This document shows, piece by piece, positions 3,111 through 39,042 of a DNA stretch of 64,000 nt. The DNA comes from an uncultured Candidatus Saccharibacteria bacterium. GTDB lineage: Bacteria > Patescibacteriota > Minisyncoccia > Phycocordibacterales > UBA6899. The stretch's first letter is position 1; the number at the start of each line of letters is the position of its first letter. The DNA is taken from contig CAYXYK010000003.1 of assembly GCA_964469335.1 (NCBI GenBank), positions 3,315 through 67,314 on the forward strand. The letters are read 5' to 3'. Under the pieces are notes generated by a model that was not told the origin of the DNA, did not search any database, and saw nothing but the letters and a program-made list of their open reading frames with translations. Both the position numbers and the translations under genes were made by a program.

Positions 3111-3131
3111 CCTGGCTTGGGTCCATCATCA

Positions 3132-3163: not shown

Positions 3164-3221
3164 ATTCCCGCGTTCTTTGGTTGTTCTTTTAAACAACGGA
3201 TTGGTTTATAATGGTTGCAGT

Positions 3222-5344: not shown

Positions 5345-6241
5345 ATGAAGGAACTCATGATGGCGTTTTCTATTACCGCGCTATTTTTTGCGCATTCTGC
5401 TTTTGCGGCAGTCGTCGTGAATGAGATCGCATGGATGGGAAGTGCCTCTTCAAGCGCGGATGAGTGGATCGAACTCCACAACGACAGTACGAACATGCAA
5501 GACCTGACCGGGTGGAAGATCACCGGCAAAGGTGGTGCAAATATCGCACTACTCTCCGGGAGTATTCCTCCGAACGGATATTTCCTGGTCGAGCGAAGTG
5601 ACGATGGCACCGTGCCGGAAGTCAAAGCAGATCTCGTTGTCTCATTCGGAAAGGGGATATCCAACGACGGCGAGACGCTGAAACTCGTCGACGGGGGAGG
5701 AAATACCGTCGACACTGTCATCGGGGGAAAGAACTGGAGCAAGATCGGCGGAGATAAAACATCGAAACAGACACCCCAACGTACCCCCTCCGGTTGGATC
5801 ACTGCCCCCGCCACACCGCGAGCTTCGAATAAGACACCTTCCGTCGCTAGTGAAATCGCCGCTCCGGTTACAAAAACAAGAGTCGCTCAACCTGTGAAAG
5901 TTGCAAACGCCGAGACGCTCAAAGAAGAGAATGTGTGGCCCGCAAAACCTGCTATCCCGCCGATAAGAGCAGTTGCGGAAGAGAAGAAGAGTGGAGGGAA
6001 TAACCAGATCATATCGACCAGTTCAGTCAGCGCGAATGTCCTCTGGCAGCGCGGGAAGAATGCAGATGCAGAGAAACGAGCATGGGCATGGATGATCGTC
6101 GCCGTACTCTTGGTCATCGCGGCATCGCTCATCATCATGCGGGCGAATGTCTATGAGCCGACTGAGGCTGACAAATACGCGATCATTGAGGACATCATCG
6201 AGGGGAAGGATGATGCCAATGACCGTCTCAGCGACTACTAG
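5345..6241 (+). CDS. secreted/membrane-anchored lamin-tail-domain (LTD) protein
   Basis: N-terminal signal peptide (AFSITALFFAHSAFA). The VVNEIAWMGS...DEWIELHN...GWKI motif block is typical of PF00932 LTD. There is a Thr/Pro/Ala-rich linker and a C-terminal TM helix (AWAWMIVAVLLVIAASLIIM). The true start may be ATG 5357/5360, which follows an AAGGAA Shine-Dalgarno. Confidence 0.65.
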   Translation: MKELMMAFSITALFFAHSAFAAVVVNEIAWMGSASSSADEWIELHNDSTNMQDLTGWKITGKGGANIALLSGSIPPNGYFLVERSDDGTVPEVKADLVVSFGKGISNDGETLKLVDGGGNTVDTVIGGKNWSKIGGDKTSKQTPQRTPSGWITAPATPRASNKTPSVASEIAAPVTKTRVAQPVKVANAETLKEENVWPAKPAIPPIRAVAEEKKSGGNNQIISTSSVSANVLWQRGKNADAEKRAWAWMIVAVLLVIAASLIIMRANVYEPTEADKYAIIEDIIEGKDDANDRLSDY

Positions 6242-6291
6242 TTTCGCTGAGCCACCTTTTTCTTTGTAGGCGGTTATACTATAGTGACGCT

Positions 6292-7743
6292 ATGCTAAAA
6301 GGGAAATTGATACTCGTGACCGGCGGCGCTGGCTTCGTTGGCACACGTTTGTGTGCGCGCCTACATGCAGACGGGAACCGTGTCATTTCCCTTGATAACT
6401 ATTTCGCGGGGAGCAGAGACAACCACGTCCCCGGTGTCGAGTATCGAGAGGGCCACACGAAGGATATCGCAAAGCATGTCACTGAGGTTCCAGACATCAT
6501 TTTTCATCTCGGGGAATATTCGCGAGTAGAACAAAGTCTCCTTGAGCCCGATATCGTTCATGACCTGAATACGCTTGGCACAAAAGGAGTGCTCGAGTTC
6601 TGGCAAACACACAAGATGAAACTCGTGTATGCCGGTTCGTCGACCAAATTCGGCGATGATGGGAAGAATCGAGAGGCATCTCCATATGCTCATACGAAGG
6701 CGGAGAACTCCGAGCTGGTGAAAAGGATCGGTGACGAGCAGGGACTTCCGTATGCGATAACCTATTTCTATAACGTGTACGGACCGGGAGAGCGCGCAGG
6801 TGTCTACGGCACGCTGATAGAGAATTTCAAACAGCAATACGTACGAGGTGCCCCACTGACCGTCACGCTTCCCGGTACTCAAGTGAGGAATTTCACTCAT
6901 GTCGACGACATCGTTGACGGGCTTGTGCTCGTGGGGGAGAAGGGAAGCGGGGATGAGTTCGGACTCGGTAATGATACGAATTATTCTATCCTTGATGTCG
7001 CGAAGATGTTCGGGACAGATGTACTGATGCTTCCGGAGCGTCGCGGCAACCGCATGCAGTCCGGCCTTGATACTTCGAAAAGTCGAGCGCTTGGGTGGAG
7101 TGCGAAGCGCTCGCTCAAAGAGTACCTCGAAGAATTCGTGAATTCTCACCCTCGTGGCAAAGAACTTGAGAAACGCATATTACTCTTCTCCACTACGTTC
7201 TATCCTGTTTCCGGCCCAGCAGAAGAAGCGCTCCTTGCGCTTGCTCGCGCGCTCCCGGGAGTGCACTTCGATGTCGTTACTACCGCTTTTTCCTCGGGTG
7301 CAAAGAGTGCGGCACACCCATTACCAAATATCGTTGTGCACCGACTTGGGATAGGGCATAAGACTGACAAATTCTTGCTTCCATTTTTGGGCTACAAAAA
7401 AGCGCGTGAATTACACGATACCCATTCATATTTGTTCGCGTGGGGGTTGATGGCGAGCTATGGGTCACTCGCCGCGATACTCCTTCGGCGTATGGTCGGG
7501 CTGCCGCTCCTCATCACGCTCGCAGATCAGAATTTTGAAGATGTTCCTGCGTTACGACGTAACTTGCTCGCGTTAATTCTCACCGGCGCTGATCAAGTAT
7601 ACGGAGGGGACAGTACTCAGGAAGAACATGCATCGACCCTCAGTCGCGGAAAACTGAAACGCCACTCGATCGGAGACGGTGATGCATTCGCGAATCAACT
7701 CCGTTTCGTCTACTCCGACTTCGCCAATAAGCAGCGCAATTAG
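6292..7743 (+). CDS. fusion protein: NAD-dependent sugar epimerase/dehydratase (SDR) plus C-terminal GT4-type glycosyltransferase N-domain only
   Basis: N-terminal LVTGGAGFVGTRL Rossmann motif, with YAHTK resembling the SDR YxxxK motif. The C-terminal roughly 170 aa (RILLFSTTFYPVSGPAEEALLAL...IVVHRLGIG...GLPLLITLADQNFEDVP) is paralogous to the N-terminal half of the GT4 at 8616. The GT C-terminal catalytic half is absent. Confidence 0.7.
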   Translation: MLKGKLILVTGGAGFVGTRLCARLHADGNRVISLDNYFAGSRDNHVPGVEYREGHTKDIAKHVTEVPDIIFHLGEYSRVEQSLLEPDIVHDLNTLGTKGVLEFWQTHKMKLVYAGSSTKFGDDGKNREASPYAHTKAENSELVKRIGDEQGLPYAITYFYNVYGPGERAGVYGTLIENFKQQYVRGAPLTVTLPGTQVRNFTHVDDIVDGLVLVGEKGSGDEFGLGNDTNYSILDVAKMFGTDVLMLPERRGNRMQSGLDTSKSRALGWSAKRSLKEYLEEFVNSHPRGKELEKRILLFSTTFYPVSGPAEEALLALARALPGVHFDVVTTAFSSGAKSAAHPLPNIVVHRLGIGHKTDKFLLPFLGYKKARELHDTHSYLFAWGLMASYGSLAAILLRRMVGLPLLITLADQNFEDVPALRRNLLALILTGADQVYGGDSTQEEHASTLSRGKLKRHSIGDGDAFANQLRFVYSDFANKQRN

Positions 7744-7756
7744 CCAGAATTTGGTA

Positions 7757-10961: not shown

Positions 10962-12160
10962 AACTCCTGATGTACTCAACCGACCGGGCACTCTTTGATG
11001 AGGAGTCACCTGTGCGCGCCAGACTTCTTGAACAGGCGAATCTCGCCACCACACTCGATGTGGTCGTATTCACTCCGCGAGGTGAAAAATTCAAACAGTT
11101 CAAGCTTGGTCGCAAACTCACCATACATCCGACCACATCGTCGTCGAAGTTCTCGTATTTGTCTGATGCATATAAGCTTGGCAAAAGCATTCTTGAGAAC
11201 GCAGAGGATAAGAGTAAGTGGCTCATCACCACTCAGGATCCATTCCTGACCGGAGCTATTGGCTTTTTTCTCTCACGAAAATTCTCCATACCACTTCATC
11301 TCCAGCTTCATACCGACCCATGGAGCCGTGAGTGGCGAGCGGAACGTCTGCGCAATAAATTCGAGCTACTCATCGCCTCATTCCTGCTCACCCGTGCAGA
11401 CGGTGTACGAGTGGTATCACAGCGAGTGAGGGCTTCTGTGCTTTCCCTCGGAGTGACACCTGACAAGATCACTCGTGTGCCGATCTGGGTGGATACGAAG
11501 ATGTTCAGGGAGGGTATCCCGAATTTCGATCTACATCGTACCTATCCTGAATTCTCGAACATCATTCTCTCCATCGGAAGATTGCAACCAGAGAAGAATT
11601 ATACGAAACTCATCAAGGTGTTCGCGCACATCTCACGTGTTCATAGTGATGCGATGCTCATCATCGTCGGTTCGGGTCCCGAACGTGAGCGATTGGTGAA
11701 TCTTTCCCGAACACTCGGTATCGACAAGGCGGTCGTGATCCTACCTTGGGCACGTGACGTCGTTTCGTATTATAAGACTTCCGACATCTATGTGCAGCCG
11801 TCACTCTATGAAGGTTGGTGCCTCACAGCTATCGAAGCGATGTCGGCTGGGACTCCCGTTGTCATGACCGACGTTGGCTGTGCAGGCGAAGTGGTCAGGA
11901 ACGAAGAAACAGGGCTGGTGGTCCCCACTCAAAGTGAGGAGGCACTCACACTTGCGCTGAACAGACTAATCGAGGATAGTACCCTGCGGGCAACATTGTC
12001 CCTCGCTGGGAAGGAAGAGAGTAAACGGCTTGCCACTAAAGAAGAGACGCTGGCGTTATATAAACAAAGCTGGGAAAAAGCATTCGGCAAGAAGGAAACG
12101 AAACATCCAACGAAAAAGAAAACAACTGAACGTGGAACAAAAACAAAAAAGAAATCCTAG
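10958..12160 (+). CDS. GT4 family glycosyltransferase with Lys-rich C-terminal tail
   Basis: EGWCLTAIEAMSAGTPVVMTDVGCAGEVV motif. Its 4-nt start overlaps the previous stop (ATGA). The C-terminus is KKETKHPTKKKTTERGTKTKKKS. Confidence 0.8.
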   Translation: MKLLMYSTDRALFDEESPVRARLLEQANLATTLDVVVFTPRGEKFKQFKLGRKLTIHPTTSSSKFSYLSDAYKLGKSILENAEDKSKWLITTQDPFLTGAIGFFLSRKFSIPLHLQLHTDPWSREWRAERLRNKFELLIASFLLTRADGVRVVSQRVRASVLSLGVTPDKITRVPIWVDTKMFREGIPNFDLHRTYPEFSNIILSIGRLQPEKNYTKLIKVFAHISRVHSDAMLIIVGSGPERERLVNLSRTLGIDKAVVILPWARDVVSYYKTSDIYVQPSLYEGWCLTAIEAMSAGTPVVMTDVGCAGEVVRNEETGLVVPTQSEEALTLALNRLIEDSTLRATLSLAGKEESKRLATKEETLALYKQSWEKAFGKKETKHPTKKKTTERGTKTKKKS

Positions 12161-12167
12161 AATTGTC

Positions 12168-13127
12168 GTGATCGGAGGGGGTACCGGAACTTTTACCGTG
12201 CTTTCCGGACTCAAACATTACCCGGTAGACCTTACCGCTGTGGTAACGATGGCGGACGACGGGGGCTCGACCGGAGTACTACGTGATGAGTTCGGTGTAC
12301 TTCCGCCAGGGGATGTGCGACAGTGTTTGGTGGCACTTGCAGATGAGGATCTCCTCATGCGTAAACTCTTCAATCATCGCTATGACAGAGGTTCACTCAA
12401 GGGGCATAGCTTCGGCAATATCTTCATCTCGACACTCGAACAGGTTGCGGGGAGTATCGATAAAGCGATCGATGTCGCCGCGAATATCCTGAATGTCCGC
12501 GGGCGTGTCGTTCCCGTCACGCTCGACCAGATCGCGCTGCACGCAGAACTCAATAACGGCAAGATACTCAATGGTGAGAGTGCGCTCATGGAGTATCAGC
12601 TGGTTTCCAAGTATGGGATCAAGAAGATATATCTCGACCCAGCAGGAAAGGCGAATCCGAAAGCACTCAAGGCAGTCGCAGAAGCGGATCTCATTGTTGT
12701 CGGGCCAGGAAAGCTCTATACATCGATACTGCCGAACTTCCTTGTTAAAGGCGTTCCGCGCGCTTTTGCACGTTCGAAAGCCAAGAAAGTGTTCATTGCG
12801 AACCTGATGAGTCAGCAGGGACATACCGATAATTTCTCCGTTTGTGATTATGTCGAAGTGCTTGAAGCATATATAGGAAAGCATGTATTCGACACCATTC
12901 TTTTCAATACCAAGAAACCCCCTCAAGCATTGGTACGCCGCTATGCTGATGAGGGTGAGCCGGTCGTCTGCACTGAGGAATGTAAGAAGAGTGGTTATGA
13001 ACTTGTCGGGAAAGACCTGCTTGCAGAGGGGATAGCGAACACGCCAAAGAAAGACCTGCTCCGCCGCACGCTCATTCGGCACGATTCCGACAAGCTTGCG
13101 AAGGCGATAATCAAGCTTCTGGGATAG
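12168..13127 (+). CDS. yvcK: YvcK/CofD-like (UPF0052, gluconeogenesis-factor / UDP-GlcNAc-binding) family protein
   Basis: IVVIGGGTGTFTVLSGLKHYPVDLTAVVTMADDGGSTGVLRDEFGVLPPGDVRQCLVAL matches the YvcK family signature. The start is uncertain. The track ATG at 12030 gives a Lys/Arg-rich extension that overlaps 130 nt of the upstream gene in an A-rich stretch. I prefer the GTG at 12168, just after the upstream stop. Confidence 0.7.
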   Translation: MIGGGTGTFTVLSGLKHYPVDLTAVVTMADDGGSTGVLRDEFGVLPPGDVRQCLVALADEDLLMRKLFNHRYDRGSLKGHSFGNIFISTLEQVAGSIDKAIDVAANILNVRGRVVPVTLDQIALHAELNNGKILNGESALMEYQLVSKYGIKKIYLDPAGKANPKALKAVAEADLIVVGPGKLYTSILPNFLVKGVPRAFARSKAKKVFIANLMSQQGHTDNFSVCDYVEVLEAYIGKHVFDTILFNTKKPPQALVRRYADEGEPVVCTEECKKSGYELVGKDLLAEGIANTPKKDLLRRTLIRHDSDKLAKAIIKLLG

Positions 13128-13316: not shown

Positions 13317-13496
13317 ATGGAATGGGTTCTCGTGATCTTTCTGCTGGTCCAAGGCCAATCGGCTGCGATCGGCAAGATCGAAGGTTTCCCAACCGAACAG
13401 GCATGTAACGATGCTTGGAACAAGATTCTCAAGGATCGGGCACAGGCAGGCCAGGCTGGGTCTTGGCTAAACCTGAGCTGTGTGCGAAAGAAATAG
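13317..13496 (+). CDS. small (59 aa) putative secreted/membrane peptide with two Cys, not in the ORF track
   Basis: ATG at 13317 is preceded by AAAGGAGAA (GGAG at 13305-8, spacing 8). Translation is MEWVLVIFLLVQGQSAAIGKIEGFPTEQACNDAWNKILKDRAQAGQAGSWLNLSCVRKK*, with stop TAG at 13494-6. It has a hydrophobic N-terminus resembling a signal peptide. Its 59 codons are just below the 60-aa track cutoff. Confidence 0.5.
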   Translation: MEWVLVIFLLVQGQSAAIGKIEGFPTEQACNDAWNKILKDRAQAGQAGSWLNLSCVRKK

Positions 13497-13594
13497 CATA
13501 CCAACAAAAGACGTTTTCAAGGATTTGTGCAGTATGCACGAATAGTCGTATCCATACCATTGGATGCATCACCCCACTATCAAGGAGAAGAGGA

Positions 13595-14500
13595 ATGCAA
13601 CTCAAGAAACACGAAGACCGTCTCGCGGTCGTCATTCGCACGTTCCAAGCGGGCGCACGCGTCGCTGGCAGCAACAAGGAGTGGAATCCCGTGACGTTCG
13701 AAAAGAGCGTGCGCGACCCTCTCTCAGCGTTGATCGACTCGGCACCACCTTCGCTTGCTCGCGTCATCATCGTTTCCTGTGGTGACAACAACTCGCCGTT
13801 GCGGGAGATGGTCGACGCCGAAGGGAAGACCCCGACGATGCGCGCAGTGCAGCAGGCGTTCCCGGAGGAGATCGCGCGTGGTTTCATCAAGGCCGTGCTC
13901 GATCCGAACTGGGGCAAGAATGCCGGAAGTGCATCGGCGCTCAATGTCGGCTGGCGTGCCGCTTCTGACGACGGCGACATCAACCTCGTCTTGTCGTGGA
14001 ACCCGGACTTCCACTTGCCCGGGCACACGCTCGCCGCCGGACTCGAGCACATGCGCCGTTACTTCCTGCCGATCTGCGGCTTCTACCGAGAAGGCTGGTA
14101 CCAACGATTCCAGTGGAACATGTTCCAGAACACCGCCACCATCTACAAGATGGAGTTCCTCAAGGAGCATGGCGGCTTCTCTCCGCGTTGCGATGGTAAT
14201 GCTGACGAGACGGTCGACGTAGGCGGTACCCCGGTGCGCCTCGCCGGCATGGATGACTTCTACGCTTATCTCACGGCAATGAAGCACATCGGCGCTGCGG
14301 TCCCTTGGGGGATGTACGGCGTGATGAAGGCATCCGATTGGGAGATCGAATTCGCCGATGACCCGCTGAAGCAGAAGATGTTCGACGAGAAGGTTCGTCG
14401 TCAACTCGTCGTGATGCAAGCCTGGGCGAAGGAGATCTTCCCGGATGTCCCGTTCTGGACCTTGATCGCCGAGATCTTCCAGATGCTGCGGCAAGCCTGA
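13595..14500 (+). CDS. hypothetical protein, possibly GT-A-fold (GT2-like) glycosyltransferase
   Basis: I chose the start at ATG 13595 (MQLKKHEDRLAVVIRTF), which follows AAGGAGAAGAGG, rather than 13415. The weak GT-A-like pattern is LAVVIRTF...ALNVGWRAASDDGDINLVLSWNPD. It lies in the high-GC cassette. Confidence 0.5.
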   Translation: MQLKKHEDRLAVVIRTFQAGARVAGSNKEWNPVTFEKSVRDPLSALIDSAPPSLARVIIVSCGDNNSPLREMVDAEGKTPTMRAVQQAFPEEIARGFIKAVLDPNWGKNAGSASALNVGWRAASDDGDINLVLSWNPDFHLPGHTLAAGLEHMRRYFLPICGFYREGWYQRFQWNMFQNTATIYKMEFLKEHGGFSPRCDGNADETVDVGGTPVRLAGMDDFYAYLTAMKHIGAAVPWGMYGVMKASDWEIEFADDPLKQKMFDEKVRRQLVVMQAWAKEIFPDVPFWTLIAEIFQMLRQA

Positions 14501-14562
14501 GTTCCAACCATACCCGAGTGGAGCGATTCCGCTTGGGACTTCAACTGAAGGAGAGCAGATAT

Positions 14563-15045
14563 ATGATCTCACACGACAAGCAGGAAGAACTCTACCGCTT
14601 CGTGGCAAGCCGCTTCGGCATGAACGACAAGCCCAGGCTGCATCTCACCGGACTCTTCACCACCGGTGGGTGCAATGGGCAAGCGGTGATCGAAGCCGGC
14701 TACAACATCGGGTATGTTGCAAGGCAGCTCACCGATGGGGAAATGCCGGACGGCGACGCACTCGAGGCGGTGTACGAGAAGCTCAGTGCACCGTTCGCGA
14801 ACTACCAGCCGGTCGGGCACGACTCGTACTGGGAGGAAGATGCCTACCATGCGAATGCCCTCCACATCCTCCGGGTGCACAAGGAGCTCATCTTCCGCAT
14901 CGCACGCGAGCTCTGGGACCTTTTCCCGGAGATCCACCAGCGGTTCGGCGAGCATGCTCCCGGAATGGAACCGGCAACCTTCTTCCGTGAGCACATGGGT
15001 GGCTTCGCTTTCCAGTGGGTCGAGCTCGATCGGGGTAAGAAATAG
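14563..15045 (+). CDS. hypothetical protein (160 aa)
   Basis: ATG 14563 follows AAGGAGAG. No motif recognised. It is the last gene of the high-GC cassette. Confidence 0.55.
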   Translation: MISHDKQEELYRFVASRFGMNDKPRLHLTGLFTTGGCNGQAVIEAGYNIGYVARQLTDGEMPDGDALEAVYEKLSAPFANYQPVGHDSYWEEDAYHANALHILRVHKELIFRIARELWDLFPEIHQRFGEHAPGMEPATFFREHMGGFAFQWVELDRGKK

Positions 15046-15125: not shown

Positions 15126-16070
15126 ATGGACGATACAGAGCGCGATGCACTGAAACTACTCGAACGTAACCGCGTTGGGGCGCTTTTACGCGTATACGCA
15201 TATACGCCCGAAGCAGTTGATTTCCAGATAAATTCTGCGATGCAGGCACTGCGCAGACTGTTGGTACTTCGCACAGGAGGAAGGCAGACATTCAATCGTA
15301 TCGACTTTCTTGTATCGAGCGACCCTGACTTTGAAGACACCGACTGCGGACTCATGACAGAACGGCTGCGTGATGCAGTTCGGTCGGAATTCCCGGATGC
15401 ACCGGTGAATGTGTCCGAAATAAAGAAAGGAGACATCTACTGCATGCTGCTCAATTATGGTGTTGCCAACCAACTCGAGGATCGTATCGCATACTCTATG
15501 ATCATTTCCCATGCCGCATCGAGCTACGCGACAGCGGAGACGGTCAACGGTCTCCTCGCAGCGATGTACAACAAGGCACGGGTCGCTGGAGTTGCTATCA
15601 ATGAGCTTGCGCCGCTTGTCTCACGCGGGCTATTGATGAACACATTCATCATGTGGCACAACAAAAGCCTGATGACGATCGGCGGATTCGATCTCATTGC
15701 CGCTAAGCCTGCACTTGTCCATGCCCACACCAGAGAGAAAGTGAAGGGATGGAGTGACAAGAAAGCCGAGCGGCACGGAGACGGCAATGTCGAATACCAC
15801 GTCGCTGGCTGCGAAGAGATCATTCCGCTCACTCGATTTGTGCGATTTTTCGGTAAGTGTCTCCAAGTTGTTGAGCCAGTCGGGACAGAGATGGAATGGG
15901 TCGAACCCGATATGGAAAAGGATAGCAGAGCATACCATCGACATCTTGCAAAACTTGCGACCAAAGTGGAGCGCCAAAAACGTATGGCTGCTACCCAAGG
16001 GGTCGATCTCGAGTTCATACAGAGGGGGCTGATGGATGCCAATATAGACAAGGAATCCGGAAGTATATAA
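15126..16070 (+). CDS. hypothetical protein (314 aa)
   Basis: Long ORF with no motif recognised. The ATG lies 6 nt after TGTTATACT, an extended -10-like element, so the mRNA may be leaderless. Confidence 0.55.
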   Translation: MDDTERDALKLLERNRVGALLRVYAYTPEAVDFQINSAMQALRRLLVLRTGGRQTFNRIDFLVSSDPDFEDTDCGLMTERLRDAVRSEFPDAPVNVSEIKKGDIYCMLLNYGVANQLEDRIAYSMIISHAASSYATAETVNGLLAAMYNKARVAGVAINELAPLVSRGLLMNTFIMWHNKSLMTIGGFDLIAAKPALVHAHTREKVKGWSDKKAERHGDGNVEYHVAGCEEIIPLTRFVRFFGKCLQVVEPVGTEMEWVEPDMEKDSRAYHRHLAKLATKVERQKRMAATQGVDLEFIQRGLMDANIDKESGSI

Positions 16071-17256: not shown

Positions 17257-18192
17257 ATGGAAAAAACAATAGGATTCATCGGGCAGGGTTGGATCGGGAA
17301 GAACCTCGCGGACAATTTCGAGCGACGTGGGTATAAGACCGTACGCTATGCCAAAGAGAAGCCGTATGACGCGAACCTCGAGAAACTCAAGAATGCAGAT
17401 ATCATCTTCATCGCGGTGCCGACCCCTACGACGCCGGAAGGATTCGACGACAGTATCCTACGTAGTGCGATCAAACTTGCGAAACCCGGACAAACAGTCG
17501 TCATCAAGTCAACGGTACTTCCTGGAACAACGGACAGCATCGCAGACGAGAATCCCGGGGTCTTCATCATGCATTCGCCTGAATTCTTGCGCGAGATGTC
17601 GGTGAAAAAAGATATCGAAAAGCCCGAGCGCAACATCATCGGGATCCCCACTCGATACAAAGATGATCCTGAGTGGAGAAAGCGTGCGGAAGAGGTACTC
17701 GCGGTGATACCGAACGCCCCATACGAAGTGATCTGCAGCGCACCTGAGGCTGAACTCACTAAATACGGCGGGAATAATTTCTTCTACGTGAAGGTGGTGT
17801 ATATGAACATGCTCTACGAACTCGCCCAGCACCACGGGGCATCCTGGGATGTGGTTGCGAAAAATATGGTCGCAGATTCGCGCATCGGCGCATCGCACAT
17901 GCAACCGGTCCATCAGATCGCGCATCTCGACAACGGTGTGCCCGGACGCGGGGCAGGTGGACACTGCTTCCTCAAGGATTTTGCCGCGTTACGATTCCAT
18001 TATGAAGAGAAGTTTCCCGATCACTCCCATATGCATTCACTTCTGCGCTCCTTCGAGGCGACGAATAATTATCTCCTCAAGTCGACCAACAAAGACAAAG
18101 AGCTCCTTCTTGGTGTGTATGGAGAGGATGTCCTTTGTGTCTGCAAGATCACCGATAAATCGAGTGTGTGCGTCTGTGGTGTGAATAAATAA
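17257..18192 (+). CDS. short UDP-glucose/GDP-mannose 6-dehydrogenase-family protein (paralog 1)
   Basis: IGFIGQGWIGKN NAD-binding N-terminus. GAGGHCFLKD matches the catalytic-Cys motif GGxCFxKD of the nucleotide-sugar dehydrogenase family. At only 311 aa it is shorter than canonical three-domain enzymes. Confidence 0.7.
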   Translation: MEKTIGFIGQGWIGKNLADNFERRGYKTVRYAKEKPYDANLEKLKNADIIFIAVPTPTTPEGFDDSILRSAIKLAKPGQTVVIKSTVLPGTTDSIADENPGVFIMHSPEFLREMSVKKDIEKPERNIIGIPTRYKDDPEWRKRAEEVLAVIPNAPYEVICSAPEAELTKYGGNNFFYVKVVYMNMLYELAQHHGASWDVVAKNMVADSRIGASHMQPVHQIAHLDNGVPGRGAGGHCFLKDFAALRFHYEEKFPDHSHMHSLLRSFEATNNYLLKSTNKDKELLLGVYGEDVLCVCKITDKSSVCVCGVNK

Positions 18193-18197: not shown

Positions 18198-19049
18198 ATG
18201 GATACCAAAAGCATCACGATAGGCGTCATCGGGCAAGGATACGTCGGCAAGAATTATGCCGATAATTTCGAGGATAGGGGTTTTGTGGTGGTGCGGTACA
18301 GTCTCGACCTGGTGCATGCAGCGAATAAGTCGAAGATACCGCAAGCGGATCTCGTCATCATCGCCGTCCCGACTCCGACGAAGAACGGCGCGTTCGATGA
18401 TTCGCTCGTGCGTGACGCACTCAGCGGCCTTCGTAAGGGACAGATTGTGGTCATCAAGTCGACGATACAGAAGGGGACAACCGACAAGCTGCAACAAGAC
18501 CACATGCATCTTGTTCTCATGCATGTTCCGGAATTTTTACGCGAAGCGTACGCGCGTGAGGATGTCGATTTTCCTTCCCGTAACATCATCGGGCTCGGTG
18601 CCGACACTCCCGCGCATCATGAAGCGGCGAAACTTGTCGAAGAAATCTTCCCAAAGGCGAAGCACACCATGAAGGTCCCTGCGGTTGACGCGGAATTCAT
18701 CAAATACACTCATAACACGATGGGGGTGATGATGATCGTGTATACCAATCTTCTCTATGATCTTGCGCGCGAGCATGGGGTCGAATGGGAGTCGGTCAAA
18801 GACGCCATCCTGCATAACCCTTGGTTTCCCGAGAAATATCTTGACCCCATCCACAAGGATGGGCGCGGAGCGGGCGGCAGCTGTTTCATCAAAGACTTTG
18901 CCGCGCTTGTTGAATCGTATCAAGCACGACTACCGAATGACAAAGAGGGGATCGAACTCCTGCAGGCGATCGCAAAGAAGAATAATCGACTCTTGCGAGA
19001 CACAGGGAAAAGCATACCCATCCTCAACGAAGTCTACGGAGATGAGTAA
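18198..19049 (+). CDS. short UDP-sugar 6-dehydrogenase-family protein (paralog 2, tandem)
   Basis: IGVIGQGYVGKN and GAGGSCFIKD motifs. It is collinear with and clearly homologous to the upstream gene (both carry VVIKST...PEFLRE...NIIG). Confidence 0.7.
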   Translation: MDTKSITIGVIGQGYVGKNYADNFEDRGFVVVRYSLDLVHAANKSKIPQADLVIIAVPTPTKNGAFDDSLVRDALSGLRKGQIVVIKSTIQKGTTDKLQQDHMHLVLMHVPEFLREAYAREDVDFPSRNIIGLGADTPAHHEAAKLVEEIFPKAKHTMKVPAVDAEFIKYTHNTMGVMMIVYTNLLYDLAREHGVEWESVKDAILHNPWFPEKYLDPIHKDGRGAGGSCFIKDFAALVESYQARLPNDKEGIELLQAIAKKNNRLLRDTGKSIPILNEVYGDE

Positions 19050-19068
19050 AGATGCCCAAAAGGCATTT

Positions 19069-19767
19069 TTATTTTTTGCGGGCGATCACGAGGATGTTCT
19101 GTTCACCTGAGCCGCTCGAGCGTGATGCAATCTCACTCCCGACGACTTCGAATCCGTTCTTCTCAAGTAGTCGACGCAATCCTCGCTCAGTGAACGCATG
19201 CAGGTAGCGGGCATGACGCTCTTTGCCGAAGGTGTGCATTATGTCGCCGAGGTCGAGCGGTGAAAGGAAAAGCATACTGCGCAGGGAAGAGAGCAAAAGT
19301 TTCCCCAAGTAACGCGGGCGCCAGAGATACCACGAAGTGATAATGAGAGTGTTTCCGGGATGCAGTACTCGTGCCGCTTCGCGAATGAACTCACCGCGAA
19401 GTCTGCGACTGGGAACATGATGAATGACGGCAAATGAATAAGCGATATCGAACGAATTGTTAGGGAAGGGGAGCTTGGTTGCGTCTCCTTCCGTGAAGTT
19501 AACCCCAGGGTGTTTCTTTTTTGCTTCATCAAGAAGTCCTCTCGAGTTGTCGAGGCCGGTGTAAATTGTCTGTCTTTCTTTGATGACATCATAAAATCTG
19601 CCGTTGCCGCAGCCAATGTCGAGGACTTTCATTCCGGGGGTAGCGTGTTCGCCGAGAAAAGTGAGTTCTTCCCAGAATCTTGCCCGTGAAGATGAGAATT
19701 CTTCGGACATCCTGTTGTACGAATGTTTGTTCTCATCAAGTAGCTTCGCTGCAGCACCTGTTCTCAT
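19069..19767 (-). CDS. class I SAM-dependent methyltransferase
   Basis: Motif I VLDIGCGNGRF and DIAYSFAVIHHV. The start is either Met at 19767 or the upstream Met at 19827. Confidence 0.7.
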   Translation of the reverse strand: MRTGAAAKLLDENKHSYNRMSEEFSSSRARFWEELTFLGEHATPGMKVLDIGCGNGRFYDVIKERQTIYTGLDNSRGLLDEAKKKHPGVNFTEGDATKLPFPNNSFDIAYSFAVIHHVPSRRLRGEFIREAARVLHPGNTLIITSWYLWRPRYLGKLLLSSLRSMLFLSPLDLGDIMHTFGKERHARYLHAFTERGLRRLLEKNGFEVVGSEIASRSSGSGEQNILVIARKK

Positions 19768-19870
19768 TGGTTCAAAGTGTAACACCATCGCGAACAGGCA
19801 AGAAATAGCAGACCTTGTGATTGCCACTGTGTCAATTACCCACCTGCTCGGAGTTTGCTACGCTCTACTG

Positions 19871-21535
19871 ATGCTGTTTGCGAACATCAAGAACGACCAA
19901 GATGTCGAAAAGCTCAAGAAGTACATCATCAAGGACAAGATACTGTCTGAGCGGCTTTTGGCTGTCAGGAAGAGGATGAAATACCCTCGTGACGGGGTCC
20001 GCCATGAGCATGACGGCAAAACGCTCCCGATGCCTACGAAGGCCGAACTTCTCGAGCTCTACAAAGAGTTACGTGAAGAGGGAAGTGAACTCGTGAACGA
20101 AGAAACACTGCTCGCACTTCGGAAAATAAAGACCAAGTCGAACTCGGGGGTGGCAGTCGTCTCGCTCCTCACTAAACCGTTCGCATGTCCCGGTCGATGT
20201 ACCTACTGTCCGACCGAGGTGAATATGCCGAAGAGTTACCTCTCGAAAGAGCCTGCCGCCGCGCGTGCGCTTCTCAATGATTTCGATCCATATCTGCAGA
20301 TCACCAATCGTTTGCGAGCACTCGAGATGAACGGACATCCGATCGACAAGATCGAGATGATCGTCATCGGGGGAACTTGGAGTTTCTACCATCCGAATTA
20401 TCAGGAAGAATTCTTGATCGGATGTTATCGCGCATGCAACGATTACAACTCCGGAAATGACTCACGTAATGAGCAGTATGAAGATAGACTCGAGTATCTG
20501 CTCGAACTACAGGATAGGAACGAACATGCGGTGTCTCGTATCATCGGGCTCTCGATCGAGACACGCCCCGACTACATCACGGATTTCGAGATCAAACGCC
20601 TCCGCGCACTCGGGGTGACCAAAGTAGAGATAGGGGTACAACATCTCGACGACGAAGTGCTCAAGCTCACCAAGCGTGACATGAAAATAGAGCGAGTGAA
20701 GCGCGCGACAGAACTCCTCCGCAATGCGGGATTCAAGATGGTGTACCACATGATGCCGAACCTTCCCGGCTCTACTCCGGAACGTGATATCAGTATGTTT
20801 GATGAGCTGTTCTCGGGTGAAGACTTCCAGCCTGACATGCTCAAGATCTATCCGTGCATGGTGCTCGAACACAGTGAGCTGTATGACATCTGGAAGGAAG
20901 GTGGATTCACTGCATATACCGACGAGCAACTGATCGAGGTGATGCGCGAGGAGAAAAAGCGCGTACCTTTGTATGTGCGCATCTTGCGCGTCTATCGTGA
21001 TATCCCCGCGTCATACATCAAATCCGGAAGCACCATATCAAACCTGCGTCAGGTGATGGATGACGATATGCGCGAGAACCACTGGCAGTGTCAATGCATC
21101 CGCTGTCGCGAGATCCGCGAAGGCTCATATGACCCGGAGGAATTCGAGCTCCGCAATAAGACCTTCCGCACGAAGTCGGGAACAGAGATGTTCCTCTCAT
21201 TCGAGCACAAGAGCGAGCGTAAACTTGCGTCATTCACCCGTCTTCGACTCCCTGATGAGCTTGGTGCACATGCGCCACTCCCTGTGCTCGAGGGGGCCGC
21301 GCTCATCCGAGAACTGCATACCTACGGAAGACACACGAAAGTCGGAGGGGAAGGGAAACAGAGCCAGCATGTCGGGTTCGGGAGGAAGCTTCTCGCCGAG
21401 GCAGAGCGCATCGCAAAAGAGCAAGGATACAAGAAACTTGCTGTCATCTCCGGTATCGGGGTACGCGAGTATTATCGCAAGCTCGGGTATACGCTCGAGG
21501 GGACGTATATGATCAAGCAGCTCGTTCAGGGATAA
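19871..21535 (+). CDS. elp3: Elp3-family radical-SAM/GNAT protein (tRNA wobble-uridine modification, ELP3/KAT9 homolog)
   Basis: Radical-SAM cysteine cluster CPGRCTYCP, plus ETRPDY, HMMPNLP and IRELHTYG blocks. The C-terminal GNAT region QHVGFGRKLLAEAERIAKEQGYKKLAVISGIGVREYYRKLGY is collinear with eukaryotic/archaeal Elp3. I chose the ATG at 19871, because the track start at 19604 would overlap the convergent minus-strand methyltransferase. Confidence 0.85.
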   Translation: MLFANIKNDQDVEKLKKYIIKDKILSERLLAVRKRMKYPRDGVRHEHDGKTLPMPTKAELLELYKELREEGSELVNEETLLALRKIKTKSNSGVAVVSLLTKPFACPGRCTYCPTEVNMPKSYLSKEPAAARALLNDFDPYLQITNRLRALEMNGHPIDKIEMIVIGGTWSFYHPNYQEEFLIGCYRACNDYNSGNDSRNEQYEDRLEYLLELQDRNEHAVSRIIGLSIETRPDYITDFEIKRLRALGVTKVEIGVQHLDDEVLKLTKRDMKIERVKRATELLRNAGFKMVYHMMPNLPGSTPERDISMFDELFSGEDFQPDMLKIYPCMVLEHSELYDIWKEGGFTAYTDEQLIEVMREEKKRVPLYVRILRVYRDIPASYIKSGSTISNLRQVMDDDMRENHWQCQCIRCREIREGSYDPEEFELRNKTFRTKSGTEMFLSFEHKSERKLASFTRLRLPDELGAHAPLPVLEGAALIRELHTYGRHTKVGGEGKQSQHVGFGRKLLAEAERIAKEQGYKKLAVISGIGVREYYRKLGYTLEGTYMIKQLVQG

Positions 21536-21557
21536 ATATTTCTGGTATACTTTGCGC

Positions 21558-22205
21558 ATGGAAAAAGACCCTCGTATCGAAAAGAGATTCGCTAGTGTCG
21601 CGGCATCGACCACCTTCCGGAACATCATCGCCGCACATGACCTCGACAAAAAGTCGGTACTCGATATCGGCTGCTCATACGGCGAATTTCTCGCCTGTTT
21701 CGGTGAGGGTAGTATGGGTGTGTCTATCTCGCCGGACGAGGCGGCATATGGTCGCGCTCGCGGACTGGAAATACATGAAGGGAACATCGAAGACCCCGCT
21801 TTCTCATTAGCAAAGCGATTCGACGTGATATTCGCCAATAATATCTTCGAGCACTTGCTCGCACCGCACACATTCTTGATCACCATCAAGAAATTCTTGA
21901 AACCGGATGGAATACTCATTCTTGGAGTCCCGTGTATTCCGAAGATCGTGTCGCTGATGCGAATAGGGAAGTTCAGGGGTGCACTTGCGACGGGGCATAT
22001 CAATTTCTTCACCAGGGAGACCTTGATCGAGTCGGTCAAGCATGGAGGATGGGATATCAGTGCGGTACGAGGATATCATTTCGCATCTCGTTTCCTCGAC
22101 ATGCTGCTCGATCCGATCTATCCGCATTTCTATATCACCGCGACTGAAGATCATGGATTCGCATATCCCGAAAAACGCCGGAAAGAGCTTGAGGGATATA
22201 AATAG
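21558..22205 (+). CDS. class I SAM-dependent methyltransferase
   Basis: VLDIGCSYGEF motif I and the FDVIFANNIFEHL block. The ATG lies 7 nt after TGGTATACT, an extended -10-like element. Confidence 0.7.
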   Translation: MEKDPRIEKRFASVAASTTFRNIIAAHDLDKKSVLDIGCSYGEFLACFGEGSMGVSISPDEAAYGRARGLEIHEGNIEDPAFSLAKRFDVIFANNIFEHLLAPHTFLITIKKFLKPDGILILGVPCIPKIVSLMRIGKFRGALATGHINFFTRETLIESVKHGGWDISAVRGYHFASRFLDMLLDPIYPHFYITATEDHGFAYPEKRRKELEGYK

Positions 22206-22318
22206 ACACAATGACCTCGTCATACGATGAAAAACTGTGACGAAAGCCTTAAAAATAAGGTTATCATTCGCATATGCGTCAATCCTCCGCAACAGGGATC
22301 CATGGTAAAATCATAACC

Positions 22319-22750
22319 ATGTTCTCATCGCTTCATGCGCTTATACTTCGGCACGGGCAGTTTCTCCGGTTCCTGATTTCCGGCGGGACCGCATTCCTCG
22401 CCAATCTGGTACTCATCTACCTCTTTACCGACATGCTCCATGTCTGGTACCTGCTGTCGTCAGTTTTTGCGTTCGTCGGAGCATTCGTGGTGAGTTTCTC
22501 GCTTCAGAAGTTCTGGACGTTCAAGAATAGAGAAGTCGATCGGATGTCGGCACAATTGGGACTTTCGCTCATGACCGCGCTCTTCAACCTCGGAGTGAAT
22601 ACCGCTTTGATGTACCTCCTCGTAGAGTATGCGCATCTGCATTACCTCACTGCGGTGGTGTGTACGACAGGGATCATCGCCATTGAGACATTCTTCGTAT
22701 ATAAATACATCATCTTCTCACCCTCCAGTTCTAATGTCTCACATGTATGA
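22319..22750 (+). CDS. GtrA-family small membrane protein (polyprenol-sugar translocation accessory)
   Basis: A protein of about 140 aa with 4 TM helices and FLRFLISGGTAFLANLVLIYLF, typical of PF04138. Start chosen at ATG 22319. Confidence 0.65.
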   Translation: MFSSLHALILRHGQFLRFLISGGTAFLANLVLIYLFTDMLHVWYLLSSVFAFVGAFVVSFSLQKFWTFKNREVDRMSAQLGLSLMTALFNLGVNTALMYLLVEYAHLHYLTAVVCTTGIIAIETFFVYKYIIFSPSSSNVSHV

Positions 22751-33878: not shown

Positions 33879-35564
33879 ATGACTACAACAGAGCAGCAAA
33901 CACAGACTTCTTCAGACGAGAAAGTCGTCATCGTCGGATTCGGATGGGTGGGGCAGGCGAATGCGCTTGCGCTGGTCCAAATGGGCTACAAGGTCTATTC
34001 CTACGACGTATTACCCCCTAAGCAGCATTACAGCGGCGCAGAAAAGCATCTCTACGAGAAGATCATTCAACTCAAGGGTCCGCTCGAAGTGGACGGCGAG
34101 AAGACCTCGTACATGGTCTGTGTCGGCGACCGTGTCGACGAAGAGGGAAGACAGGACATCGTGTTCATCAAGCAGGCGCTCGAGTCGCTACGCAATGCGA
34201 AAGGTGTGGTGATCCTTCGTTCGACCATCGTCCCGAAGTCGCTCGATGATCTTCATTTCGATCTCTATATTCCGGAATTCCTGCATGAGAAGTTCGCCAT
34301 CCAAGAATGTATCCGTCCGTACTATTTCGTGCTCGGCTCGGGGACGAAGGGAAGGGAGGTCGCACTGCCGTCGTATGTGCTCTTGTGGCAGGAACGCGCA
34401 GACAAGGTCTTCTCAGGGACCTATACCGAAGCTTCGTTCATCAAGTATTACTCCAACATGTGGAATGCCGTCCGTATCGCATTCGTCAACGAACTCGGTG
34501 ATGTCATAGCAAAGAATTCAACGAGTGAACATCCGTCGGAAGATGCCGAGAGAGTGATCAATTTCCTGTTCGAAGGGAAGAGCTACCTTCGCTACGGAAA
34601 AGGTTTTGGTGGACACTGTCTTCCGAAGGACATGCGTGCGTTCCTTGCTGCATACAAGGATGAACACCATACGGAGATCCTCTCCGGAACGTATCTTTCC
34701 AATGAAGCTCATGCCAAGTTCGAGCGTGAGCACAATACGTCGCTTCCCGAGTGGTACTCAGCGTGGAACTATGACAGCATCGTCGACCACCAGAAGAAAG
34801 CCGTCACGCTATTCATAAGGAAGATCTATCACTCTCCACCCGTCACGTTCATTCGGCACTTCTTCAAGCCCGCGGTGGTGTTCGGTGAGCGTTTCGTTCC
34901 GCCGCGCACGAAAGAAGAGCAGCGACGGGTGTGGGAGGAGAAGGCAAAAGAGAATGCCCGCTACTACGTGAACCAAAAGACGAGAAGCGCTGAGTTCGTC
35001 GACGAGTCCGAGATACAAGAGACAGGTAAGGAGGATTTCGAGCGACTCATCCTTGGCGACAAGAAACTGATCGACCGACTTCCGGGGGAGAGGAAGAAGC
35101 TGGTGGTACTCGATATCGGCTCCGGGATAGGGCGCATGACCGAGATGTTCGCAGGAGAATTCGGACAAGTGCACGGTATCGACATCTCGCCGACGATGGT
35201 CGAGATCGCTCGCCGAAGACTCGGTACGCTTCCGAACGTGTCGTTCAAGGAATCCGAAGGTGACAGTGTGCCGTACGGAGACAATACTTTTGATCTGATC
35301 TTCTCGTATCTCGTATTCCAGCATATCGATGACATCGCGACACTCGAGCGGTACATGAACGAGATCCGTCGTACGCTCAAGCCGAAGGGTGTCGCAAAAA
35401 TACAGCTGCGGAGCGGACTCGGAGTCAGGCGTTGGGTATGGTCCTACGGAGTGCCGTTCTCGCAGGAAAGCGCGGCGCGCCTCGCTGAGGAGGCAGGATT
35501 ACAAGTGCTCAACAATGAAGTTGAAGATACGAAATTCCTCTGGCTGATCGTCAGAAGACCATAA
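33879..35564 (+). CDS. fusion: short UDP-sugar 6-dehydrogenase-family domain (paralog 3) plus C-terminal class I SAM methyltransferase
   Basis: N-terminal VVIVGFGWVGQAN and GFGGHCLPKD (GGxCxxKD motif). The C-terminus has VLDIGSGIGRMTEMF motif I and LIFSYLVFQHI. Confidence 0.7.
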   Translation: MTTTEQQTQTSSDEKVVIVGFGWVGQANALALVQMGYKVYSYDVLPPKQHYSGAEKHLYEKIIQLKGPLEVDGEKTSYMVCVGDRVDEEGRQDIVFIKQALESLRNAKGVVILRSTIVPKSLDDLHFDLYIPEFLHEKFAIQECIRPYYFVLGSGTKGREVALPSYVLLWQERADKVFSGTYTEASFIKYYSNMWNAVRIAFVNELGDVIAKNSTSEHPSEDAERVINFLFEGKSYLRYGKGFGGHCLPKDMRAFLAAYKDEHHTEILSGTYLSNEAHAKFEREHNTSLPEWYSAWNYDSIVDHQKKAVTLFIRKIYHSPPVTFIRHFFKPAVVFGERFVPPRTKEEQRRVWEEKAKENARYYVNQKTRSAEFVDESEIQETGKEDFERLILGDKKLIDRLPGERKKLVVLDIGSGIGRMTEMFAGEFGQVHGIDISPTMVEIARRRLGTLPNVSFKESEGDSVPYGDNTFDLIFSYLVFQHIDDIATLERYMNEIRRTLKPKGVAKIQLRSGLGVRRWVWSYGVPFSQESAARLAEEAGLQVLNNEVEDTKFLWLIVRRP

Positions 35565-37794: not shown

Positions 37795-39042
37795 TTAGTT
37801 ATCAATGATACGAGGAGTAGGGAGTGGCATGATGAACTTGCCCTTGTAGCCGAGCTTGCGGTAGATCCGCATCAATTCTTCGCCGATGTGCCATGACAGG
37901 ATGAGCGCATATGACGGCTGCTCCTTGAATATCTGTTCTTCGTCGACGACGGGGATGTGCGTTCCGGGAGTGTAGAGCCCGATCTTCGGTGAACCTTTCT
38001 TCTCACCGGCATACGAAACGAGGTGTGTGTTGATCTTGGTGAACCCGAGAAGTGTGTTGGAGCGTGCCGCGCTCGAAACTCCGGCGATGGTCGCGCCGGT
38101 CTTCTTGACCGAGAGGAGGAGTGCGAGGAGGTCGTTCTTCGCGGAGATGACGCGCTCGCCGAATGCACGAAGGGTCTTCGTGTCATAGAGACCAAGAGCC
38201 TCTTCTTCCTTGAGGATCTCCGCCACCCGTGCAGCCGGCTTGTGTGTTCCGGTCTTCATGTAGACGCGAATAGAGCCGCCTGCCGCATCAATGTGTTCGG
38301 CGTCGACAATGGACATGCCCGCATCCTTGGCGAGTCGCATAAGCGGCTTGAGCGCGTAGAAACGCAAATGTTCGTGGTAGACGGTATCGAATTCGAGTTT
38401 CTCGACGATGTCAGCAAGATACTGTGACTCAGAAACGAACACGCTGTCCTTTCCCATCATCGCTTTGACGGCACGGATGAGTTTCGGTGTGTCGTCGATG
38501 TGTGCGAACACATTGGTCGCGGTGATGACCTTGGCCTTGCCGTGCTTTGCTACTACTTTCTTCGCACTCGCAAGGGTGAAGAATTCTTCGTAGGTTTTGA
38601 TGCCGTTCTTGTTCGCGACACGTGCCGCGCGGGTGGGCTCGACTCCGACAACCTTCATCCCGCGTCGTTTGAACGAAGAAAGAAGTGTTCCGTCGTTCGA
38701 TCCGATGTCGACGATAAGATCACCGTCTACATAGCTCCCGTTTGCCTTGAGTGTCTCGGCGAGCGACTCGAAATTGCGGATGAGCATGTTGGTAAGTCCG
38801 GTACGATACGGGTAGTGGGGAGGGAAGACGAGTTTCGGGTCAACGACATAGTCGAGCTGGACGAGTCCGCATTTCTCGCAGCGCACGAGGTTCAAGGGGT
38901 AGGTCGTCTCTTCTTCGTGGAGCTCCTTTTGGGTGCGATAGTTCTGCACGATAGGCTGATGGCCGAGATCGAGAATACCCTTGAGGTTATCATTGCCGCA
39001 AATCTGGCATTTGCTGACGTGACCGTATGCGTTCTTCTTCAT
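37795..39042 (-). CDS. sugar C-methyltransferase-like SAM methyltransferase (N-terminal Zn-ribbon + Methyltransf_13/14 architecture)
   Basis: N-terminal CQICGN...CEKCGLVQL zinc-binding motif. There is a central VDIGSNDGTLL SAM motif and a long C-terminal domain. This architecture is typical of TylC3/NovU-type C-methyltransferases. Confidence 0.7.
   Translation of the reverse strand: MKKNAYGHVSKCQICGNDNLKGILDLGHQPIVQNYRTQKELHEEETTYPLNLVRCEKCGLVQLDYVVDPKLVFPPHYPYRTGLTNMLIRNFESLAETLKANGSYVDGDLIVDIGSNDGTLLSSFKRRGMKVVGVEPTRAARVANKNGIKTYEEFFTLASAKKVVAKHGKAKVITATNVFAHIDDTPKLIRAVKAMMGKDSVFVSESQYLADIVEKLEFDTVYHEHLRFYALKPLMRLAKDAGMSIVDAEHIDAAGGSIRVYMKTGTHKPAARVAEILKEEEALGLYDTKTLRAFGERVISAKNDLLALLLSVKKTGATIAGVSSAARSNTLLGFTKINTHLVSYAGEKKGSPKIGLYTPGTHIPVVDEEQIFKEQPSYALILSWHIGEELMRIYRKLGYKGKFIMPLPTPRIIDN

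Follow-up and report, generated by a model that had tools for sequence, protein, structure and literature searches.

The Elp3 Gene and Its Divergent Neighbor

The window considered here is a stretch of 64,000 nucleotides from contig CAYXYK010000003.1 (positions 3,315 to 67,314, forward strand) of an uncultured Candidatus Saccharibacteria bacterium (GenBank assembly GCA_964469335.1). It contains a gene for Elp3, a protein that combines a radical S-adenosylmethionine (SAM) domain with a lysine acetyltransferase (KAT) domain of the GNAT type, and on the opposite strand, start codon facing start codon, a gene for a class I SAM-dependent methyltransferase. Here, we describe both genes, their pairing in related genomes and the modification of the tRNA wobble uridine (U34) that they may carry out, in which 5-carboxymethyluridine (cm5U) would be formed and then converted to 5-methoxycarbonylmethyluridine (mcm5U). 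The features are listed below, with the Elp3 proteins of Dehalococcoides mccartyi (DmcElp3) and Methanocaldococcus infernus (MinElp3) for comparison.

19871..21535, + strand: Elp3 coding sequence, radical-SAM and KAT/GNAT domains, 554 amino acids plus stop codon; matches to TIGR01211, Pfam and the PDB entries 6iaz and 5l7j
19871..20131, + strand: N-terminal extension of Elp3, amino acids 1-87; structure alignments begin only at amino acids 79-88
20186..20209, + strand: radical-SAM [4Fe-4S] triad C106, C110, C113 (CPGRCTYC, CX3CX2C), aligned to C23, C27 and C30 of DmcElp3
21089..21106, + strand: Zn triad C407, C409, C412 (CQCIRC) in the inter-domain linker, aligned to CRCIRC of DmcElp3 and MinElp3
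21311..21475, + strand: acetyl-CoA pocket of the KAT domain, E481, H483, QHVGFGR (Q499-R505) and Y534/Y535, by alignment to DmcElp3
19069..19767, - strand: putative Trm9-like class I SAM methyltransferase, 232 amino acids, divergent from Elp3; predicted carboxyl O-methyltransferase converting cm5U34 to mcm5U34
19768..19870, no strand: divergent intergenic region, 103 bp from start codon to start codon, presumed to be a shared promoter region

The open frame of the Elp3 gene runs unbroken on the + strand from 19604 to 21535; the ATG at 19871 yields the 554-residue protein and is the start position shared by homologues of 550-557 amino acids. An alignment of 16 orthologues places the start of the methyltransferase at the ATG at 19767. 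A consensus scan of 18900-22400 for sigma-70-like promoters and for terminators returned nothing above the shuffled expectation and no site within the 103-bp intergenic region. The GC content of the Elp3 gene (0.50-0.52) is in line with that of the window. A first-pass annotation, made by a model from the sequence alone, had placed Elp3 inside a glycan locus and among methyltransferases, which holds: glycan genes fill most of the window and two methyltransferases flank Elp3. One of these had been described as convergent; the upstream gene (19069-19767, - strand) is instead divergent and the downstream gene (21552-22205, + strand) co-directional.

An Intact Elp3 With an N-Terminal Extension

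Profile and alignment evidence confirm the open reading frame (ORF) 19871-21535 as an intact full-length Elp3 that has kept every catalytic residue and every residue for binding the Fe-S cluster, Zn and acetyl-CoA. Against the TIGR01211 (ELP3) profile, which has a curated cut-off of 350 bits, the protein scores 530.6 bits (E 3.7e-159), with amino acids 66-551 covering positions 42-522 of the 522-position model; the runner-up family, MnmL/YtqA, reaches only 61 bits, where 180 would be required. PDB matches were obtained to the Elp3 proteins of M. infernus (1e-115), D. mccartyi (4e-105) and yeast and mouse (both approximately 1e-88), and together with the profile match to the last model position they bear out the collinearity with Elp3 that the first-pass annotation had read from the translation. 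The motifs it quoted, CPGRCTYCP (amino acids 106-114), ETRPDY, HMMPNLP, IRELHTYG and the C-terminal AVISGIGVREYYRKLGY, are all found there. The core of the protein is 46.5% identical to MinElp3 and likewise 46.5% to DmcElp3, so that by identity it is no closer to the one than to the other.

Pfam recognizes Radical_SAM at amino acids 105-305 (65.7 bits) and Radical_SAM_C at amino acids 321-401, while Acetyltransf_1 scores 19.1 bits, slightly under its threshold of 20.7. Such a sub-threshold score is usual for the divergent KAT domain of Elp3. Both the Elp3 model and structure-based alignments span the KAT/GNAT domain to the final residues, so that the C-terminal GNAT domain claimed earlier is present despite the Pfam score. 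The profile search that had been suggested for a check also covered the radical-SAM families of the HemN/coproporphyrinogen type, which were rejected at 45 bits or less, well under the family cut-offs.

Functional residues were mapped by a HMMER alignment to DmcElp3, with the residue lists taken from the literature (PMC6367351). The pocket is completed by K160 (nt 20348) and K289 (nt 20735), which are equivalent to K77 and K193 of DmcElp3 and to K150 and K266 of MinElp3. E481, H483 and R505 correspond to E386, H388 and R411 of DmcElp3, and Y534 to Y441 of DmcElp3 and Y517 of MinElp3; thus DmcElp3 residues K77, K193, E386, H388, R411 and Y441 are all identical in the window protein (6/6). The Zn-binding cysteine motif is one that has been described for prokaryotic Elp3 (PMC6367351). 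With these residues in place the window Elp3 is predicted to be catalytically competent.

The closest characterized proteins resemble the window Elp3 in different ways. The archaeal enzymes (M. infernus and M. jannaschii; 6IA8, 6IAZ, 6IAD) share with it the collinear radical-SAM and KAT domains, the Zn triad, the pocket residues (equivalents of K150, K266, H463 and Y517) and a Lys/Arg-rich N-terminal extension of approximately 80-90 residues, and as for these single-subunit enzymes, no other Elongator subunits are expected. However, the Fe-S spacing is CX4CX2C in archaeal Elp3 and CX3CX2C in the window protein, as in Dehalococcoides; Q461 of MinElp3 is replaced by Glu in the window protein and in DmcElp3; and the window host is a bacterium. 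DmcElp3 (5L7J, 5L7L, 6IA6), which is the one Elp3 from a bacterium that has been studied, has the bacterial host, the Fe-S spacing, the pocket residues and the Zn cysteines in common with the window protein, but lacks an N-terminal extension, which comprises 87 amino acids in the window Elp3.

This extension is basic, with 21 Lys or Arg among residues 1-90, and no sequence similarity between it and the archaeal one was found. In MinElp3 the extension increases the affinity for tRNA approximately 28-fold, and the dissociation constants for tRNA are approximately 1.4 uM for DmcElp3, which is without the extension, and 50 nM for MinElp3 (PMC6367351). By analogy, the extension of the window Elp3 may be functionally equivalent to the archaeal tRNA-binding one.

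The best reading of the role of this Elp3 appears to be that of a tRNA U34 cm5 synthase. The historical name of the family, "histone acetyltransferase ELP3," would instead suggest a protein lysine acetyltransferase; a PDB depositor name ("Histone acetyltransferase, ELP3 family") and the GNAT-type acetyl-CoA pocket agree with this. We regard such an activity as extremely improbable, since the peptide site of the KAT domain is occluded by the radical-SAM domain and acetyl-CoA hydrolysis is triggered by tRNA only, not by histone or tubulin peptides (PMC6367351), and it would leave the intact radical-SAM cluster unexplained.

Some Elp3 homologues of the candidate phyla radiation (CPR) have an additional domain. 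In P0045, P0062 and P0108 a GIY-YIG domain (PF01541) of approximately 100 amino acids is inserted in-frame, exactly between the W(K/Q)(E/K/A)G and GF.(A/P)YTD blocks; the matching site in the window Elp3 lies between amino acids 340 and 341 (approximately nt 20890). The insert resembles a mobile nuclease domain that has lodged within Elp3.

Distribution of Elp3 in the Patescibacteria

The first-pass annotation had considered the presence of Elp3 unusual for a bacterium, a view that the homologues do not support. The best 120 are 61-100% identical to the window Elp3, their named sources are Lloydbacteria, Yonathbacteria, Nomurabacteria and Patescibacteria group metagenome-assembled genomes (MAGs), and some already carry the NCBI name "tRNA uridine(34) ... 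Elp3". The nearest loci are on MAGs titled Candidatus Lloydbacteria, Paceibacterota and Patescibacteria, with a protein identity of 72-90%. From these relatives the host is a Parcubacterium, a member of the ultra-small CPR/Patescibacteria, close to Candidatus Lloydbacteria. Because the gene is widespread among such bacteria and already named there, the window Elp3 is normal for its lineage and not exceptional. In contrast, reviews of Elongator restrict bacterial Elp3 to Dehalococcoides (PMC7663514), whereas the gene is lineage-wide in the Patescibacteria examined here. Literature searches pairing Elp3 or Trm9 with CPR, Patescibacteria or Parcubacteria returned no paper making this link.

On the chromosome of an uncultured Candidatus Peribacteria (OZ246420.1, locus L027), a tblastn match to Elp3 residues 54-552 with 39% identity was found at 5845-7749, in which the longest open frame under genetic code 11 is 167 amino acids. 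This is either a pseudogene or a case of an alternative genetic code.

Elp3 and the Methyltransferase Form a Conserved Pair

Gene neighborhoods were compared over the loci of relatives, which are numbered with L. In all loci holding both genes, the methyltransferase is invariably upstream of Elp3 on the opposite strand. Starting from Elp3, 13 Lloydbacteria-like loci have a methyltransferase orthologue at a distance of 28-2799 bp; two further loci were set aside, their upstream DNA being too short to judge. Starting from the methyltransferase, all seven homologues that were looked up are head-to-head with Elp3, at 32-46% (methyltransferase) and 43-61% (Elp3) identity to the window counterparts. 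Three of the seven have a glycan context and four (L032-L035) a housekeeping context: in L032 the neighbors are Mur ligase, MutH, HD and PurD, with no glycan genes around the pair, while L033, L034 and L035 have RecG, PabAB, GatB, CoaE and Fmt between them and each retain one WecG-type glycosyltransferase. L035 is from a Peregrinibacteria genome, and L034 is on a 1.37-Mb contig. The remaining neighbors of Elp3 differ even between close relatives.

Since the pairing is kept in housekeeping loci while the other neighbors vary, the conserved unit is the pair of Elp3 and methyltransferase and not the glycan locus. As indirect evidence, the head-to-head adjacency suggests that the methyltransferase is functionally coupled to Elp3. 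The first-pass proposal of a stand-alone cm5U34 synthase thus keeps its enzymatic part and loses the "stand-alone," as a Trm9-like neighbor travels with Elp3 across the Patescibacteria. The genomic context, which had also been called unusual, has no detectable functional meaning, given the housekeeping loci of the pair and the neighbors of other CPR Elp3 genes, such as GH18 and PfkB.

The methyltransferase downstream of Elp3 was also considered as a conserved partner and rejected: it is present in L002, L003 and L007 (85%-identity relative), while L001 has NUDIX and L004 has GtrA in its place.

The Methyltransferase Is Most Likely Trm9-Like

In the NCBIfam/Pfam view the methyltransferase at 19069-19767 is a generic Methyltransf_11/UbiE-like enzyme (Methyltransf_11, 80.6 bits). 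It belongs to a family of 929 representatives (50% clustering, E <= 1e-30), of which the named members are from Patescibacteria, Peregrinibacteria and Gracilibacteria. With a family HMM the orthologues score 338-375 bits and are clearly set apart from every other methyltransferase of the loci, none of which exceeds 60 bits. JGI automatic labels on several members read TRM9 or ALKBH8.

A more specific assignment comes from comparison with yeast Trm9, for which the query sequence agreed with the literature (PMC4678810) at 17 of 17 numbered residues. Searched against all 873 ORFs of the window, yeast Trm9 matches 19069-19767 at 69.0 bits (E 1.8e-20), in an alignment that begins at Trm9 residue 9; the next ORF scores 15.6 bits. 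At least 10 class I methyltransferases compete in the window, yet Trm9 favors this one by more than 50 bits.

Yeast Trm9 is inactivated by Ala mutations of R29, D72, H116, W145, W168, R241, Y243 and N271 (PMC4678810). The window protein has the same amino acid at six of these eight essential positions (R28, D73, H117, W146, R187 and N224), and the six columns hold the Trm9 residue in 354-367 of the 368 members of the family alignment; the SAM-binding Asp (D72 in yeast, D73 here) is kept in 367. Also kept are the equivalents of Y18 and H115, for which contacts to the carboxymethyl group and to O4 of the uracil have been proposed in Trm9. In terms of motifs, the two proteins share FSxxRxxxW near the N-terminus, VIHH, W145, RYxH and the C-terminal Asn, while the insertion of yeast Trm9 is missing from the window protein. 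A distant family member, that of L033, matches yeast Trm9 at 89 bits with 33.5% identity and has exact FSQTRxxPW, IPW and RYYH motifs.

The AF2 model of the methyltransferase (pLDDT 92.5) has a Rossmann-type methyltransferase fold. Trm9 of Yarrowia (5cm2_Z) is second among the PDB sequence matches, with a single-sequence as well as with a profile query, and in a Foldseek search with the model it ranks fourth by E-value, yet has the top identity (24%) among the matches listed. Fold and global score are insufficient for membership of the Trm9 family; the residue mapping and the discrimination within the window are more informative. From these, the methyltransferase is most likely a Trm9-like enzyme.

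Alternative Roles of the Pair

A number of observations weigh against a joint tRNA pathway of Elp3 and a Trm9-like partner. In the PDB profile search the scores are level, with 64.9 bits for Trm9, 65.9 for 3sm3, 64.8 for 1ve3 and 64.3 for RebM, and the order of Foldseek E-values places 3sm3, SpnF and RebM before Trm9, with PH0226 also not clearly separated. Two of the eight essential residues of yeast Trm9 differ: Y243 corresponds to L189 (Y in 171 of 368 family members), and W168 to F180 (W in 208 and F in 144 of 368), the latter by the motif D-x-F-[IV]-P-[WF] alone because aligners put W168 elsewhere. Eukaryotic and archaeal Trm9 depend on Trm112, and a motif (regular-expression) search of the window and of L001-L031, which is a weak detector, did not find a Trm112-like small ORF. 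In three more distant CPR loci (L020, L022 and L025), with an Elp3 that is 44-64% identical to that of the window, the 6 kb upstream of Elp3 is without the methyltransferase; these lineages may have the partner gene in another part of the genome or lack it. Finally, in three loci a WecG/TagA-type glycosyltransferase gene begins within the methyltransferase gene, with an overlap of 16-25 bp.

L033, 5001-6502: Trm9-like/WecG overlap, Peregrinibacteria-type
L034, 5001-6475: Trm9-like/WecG overlap, Peregrinibacteria-type
L035, 5001-6457: Trm9-like/WecG overlap, Peregrinibacteria-type

In three separate 50%-identity clusters, represented by P0320 (469 amino acids), P0357 (520 amino acids) and P0384 (500 amino acids), the methyltransferase is even fused to the WecG/TagA-type protein. 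Overlap and fusion leave room for a glycan-related role of the methyltransferase.

Some of this evidence would fit an Elp3 that acts alone as cm5U34 (or ncm5U34) synthase, next to a methyltransferase with another substrate, be it a hexuronic acid of the cell-surface glycan that it would methyl-esterify, another RNA or a small molecule, the adjacency of the two being inherited synteny. A methylation of this kind has a precedent in AglP of Haloferax volcanii, which methyl-esterifies the hexuronic acid of a cell-surface glycan. In the window the methyltransferase directly adjoins two UDP-glucose-dehydrogenase-like genes, in other lineages it is linked to WecG/TagA, generic class I methyltransferases match the PDB score of Trm9, and most automatic annotations of the family read UbiE or generic methyltransferase. 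Moreover, archaeal Elp3 by itself yields cm5U in vitro (PMC7663514). We nevertheless consider a lone Elp3 unlikely, though it is the most probable of the alternatives: yeast Trm9 clearly picks out this one methyltransferase from its competitors, the residues that would hold the uracil and carboxymethyl groups (R29, H115/H116, W145, R241 and N271) are near-invariant in the 368 family members, and the pairing is kept down to 32% identity of the methyltransferase and, in L032, also without UDP-glucose dehydrogenase or glycan genes.

A different possibility is that both enzymes act together on a uridine-containing substrate other than tRNA, such as a UDP-sugar with its uracil, or on a substrate of glycan synthesis, such as an intermediate. 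All Lloydbacteria-like loci and L028-L031 have the pair amid glycosyltransferases, epimerases, CofD/YvcK-like and UDP-glucose-dehydrogenase-like genes, and WecG follows the methyltransferase in L033-L035 and the fusion proteins. This reading seems very unlikely, as all characterized Elp3 proteins from bacteria, archaea and eukaryotes are specifically triggered by tRNA (PMC6367351), and the whole Elp3 architecture is kept, including the basic N-terminal extension of the tRNA-binding type. Glycan genes are missing around the pair in L032, and the Elp3 neighbors scanned in L020, L022 and L025 (GH18, DNA polymerase III delta, RNase T, PfkB or genes without a Pfam match) include none for glycan synthesis. 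Equally little credence is given to the broader version in which the pair also, or instead, modifies an envelope precursor bearing uridine or uronic acid, or is mechanistically coupled to the synthesis of envelope glycans, although this would explain the repeated glycan-gene neighbors and the fusions of P0320, P0357 and P0384. A functional tie between Elp3 and the glycan locus was deemed unlikely on the basis of the housekeeping loci L032-L035 and of the non-glycan neighbors of other CPR Elp3 genes, with the WecG fusions keeping it at a low probability. The place of the pair in the glycan locus is probably incidental.

A Putative mcm5U34 Pathway in Bacteria

Elp3 and the Trm9-like methyltransferase thus probably form a module for the successive formation of cm5U and mcm5U at position 34 of tRNA, which lies in the glycan locus by chance. 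The proposal is built on Elp3 family membership, the conservation of its catalytic residues, the Trm9-like residue pattern of the partner and the pairing of the genes. Elp3 would grip the anticodon stem-loop of the tRNA in the cleft between its domains, aided by the basic N-terminal extension, and its [4Fe-4S] cluster would split SAM to give a 5'-deoxyadenosyl radical. C5 of the wobble uridine would then be modified to cm5U34, of which the carboxyl group would be methyl-esterified by the Trm9-like enzyme to yield mcm5U34. The two genes would in this way represent a compact, divergently transcribed module for a wobble-uridine route of the archaeal/eukaryotic type in a bacterium. That tRNA is the substrate, that cm5U and mcm5U are the products, that Trm112 is or is not used and that the two genes share their regulation are predictions from this pattern.

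The closest precedent for the gene pair is the archaeal Elp3-Trm9 arrangement in Sulfolobus solfataricus and H. volcanii: the genes for Elp3 and the Trm9 orthologue are clustered in S. solfataricus, and Trm9-Trm112 of H. volcanii produces mcm5U (PMC6144793). However, the H. volcanii enzyme requires Trm112 in vivo and is archaeal, not bacterial, and it is the CPR loci examined here that show the head-to-head layout and, in some cases, a fusion to WecG. The eukaryotic system of Elongator (Elp1-6) and Trm9-Trm112 performs the same two chemistries that are predicted for the window pair, whereas the window is without Elp1, Elp2 and Elp4-6 and has the two genes physically paired.

Bacteria are the textbook users of MnmE/MnmG for wobble-uridine modification. 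This system, which forms cmnm5U34 or mnm5U34, targets the same C5 of U34 and presumably serves the same role in decoding, but its chemistry (GTPase, FAD and folate) is unrelated to the radical SAM and acetyl-CoA chemistry of Elp3. The locus and its relatives suggest that the Patescibacteria/CPR, a large radiation, have a full-length Elp3 with an N-terminal extension in the archaeal style and, in many lineages, a Trm9-like partner. An mcm5U34 pathway across the Patescibacteria would have an archaeal precedent and is apparently undescribed for bacteria. If the proposal is correct, Trm9 and a predicted mcm5U would be recorded from bacteria for the first time, and the translation of CPR bacteria would gain one more archaeal/eukaryote-like feature. 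The pair would also provide small single-subunit enzymes for mechanistic studies of Elongator and a test of Trm9 function without Trm112. For annotation, a family now called "UbiE" or "class I SAM-dependent methyltransferase" would gain a specific name.

The Glycan Locus and Surrounding Genes

The glycan and nonulosonic-acid locus extends from approximately 6.3 kb to the end of the window at 64 kb (roughly 55 kb). It contains GT4 and GT2 glycosyltransferases, epimerases, UDP-glucose-dehydrogenase-like genes, GtrA, a polysaccharide deacetylase and AsnB, as well as DegT aminotransferases, a flippase, NeuB, cytidylyltransferases and ManC. Searches for tRNA genes, tmRNA genes and Rfam matches found none in the window. 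Immediately after Elp3 follows another methyltransferase gene.

21552-22205, + strand: downstream methyltransferase, co-directional with Elp3, beginning 17 bp past the Elp3 stop codon

The density of class I SAM methyltransferases in the window is unusually high, with at least 10 (at 19069, 21552, 23598, 25177, 29940, 30566, 31278, 33879 as a fusion, 48547 and 51224) and in addition a C-methyltransferase at 37795-39042. The two short genes at 17257-18192 and 18198-19049 (311 and 283 amino acids) are UDP-glucose/GDP-mannose-dehydrogenase-like and have only the N-terminal and central domains; such a tandem is also found in L002 and L029. A third dehydrogenase-like copy at 33879-35564 is fused to a C-terminal Methyltransf_11 (561 amino acids).

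A CofD-like/YvcK-type gene (12030-13127; TIGR01826, 318 bits) is separated from the pair by a few kb and is also near it in L001, L002, L004, L028 and L029, which makes it the next most persistent neighbor. The three successive ORFs at 13415-14500, 14518-15045 and 15126-16070 have no Pfam/NCBIfam match, and three unannotated genes are in the same place in L002 (3461-6193). Upstream of the glycan locus, a 718-amino acid ATPase with weak similarity to VirD4/TraG/HerA coupling proteins (3117-5273) is followed by a lamin-tail-domain (LTD) protein (5345-6241).

The region 50150-63977 is a sub-cluster of the nonulosonic-acid type, with a PseB-like dehydratase, NeuB (57444-58511), two CMP-sugar cytidylyltransferases and aminotransferases. 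A phosphopantetheinyl transferase (52945-53328), a MaoC dehydratase (54519-55013), a short-chain dehydrogenase/reductase (SDR) and an aminoglycoside-N-acetyltransferase-like gene are interleaved with these, a gene mix that suggests an acylated sugar.

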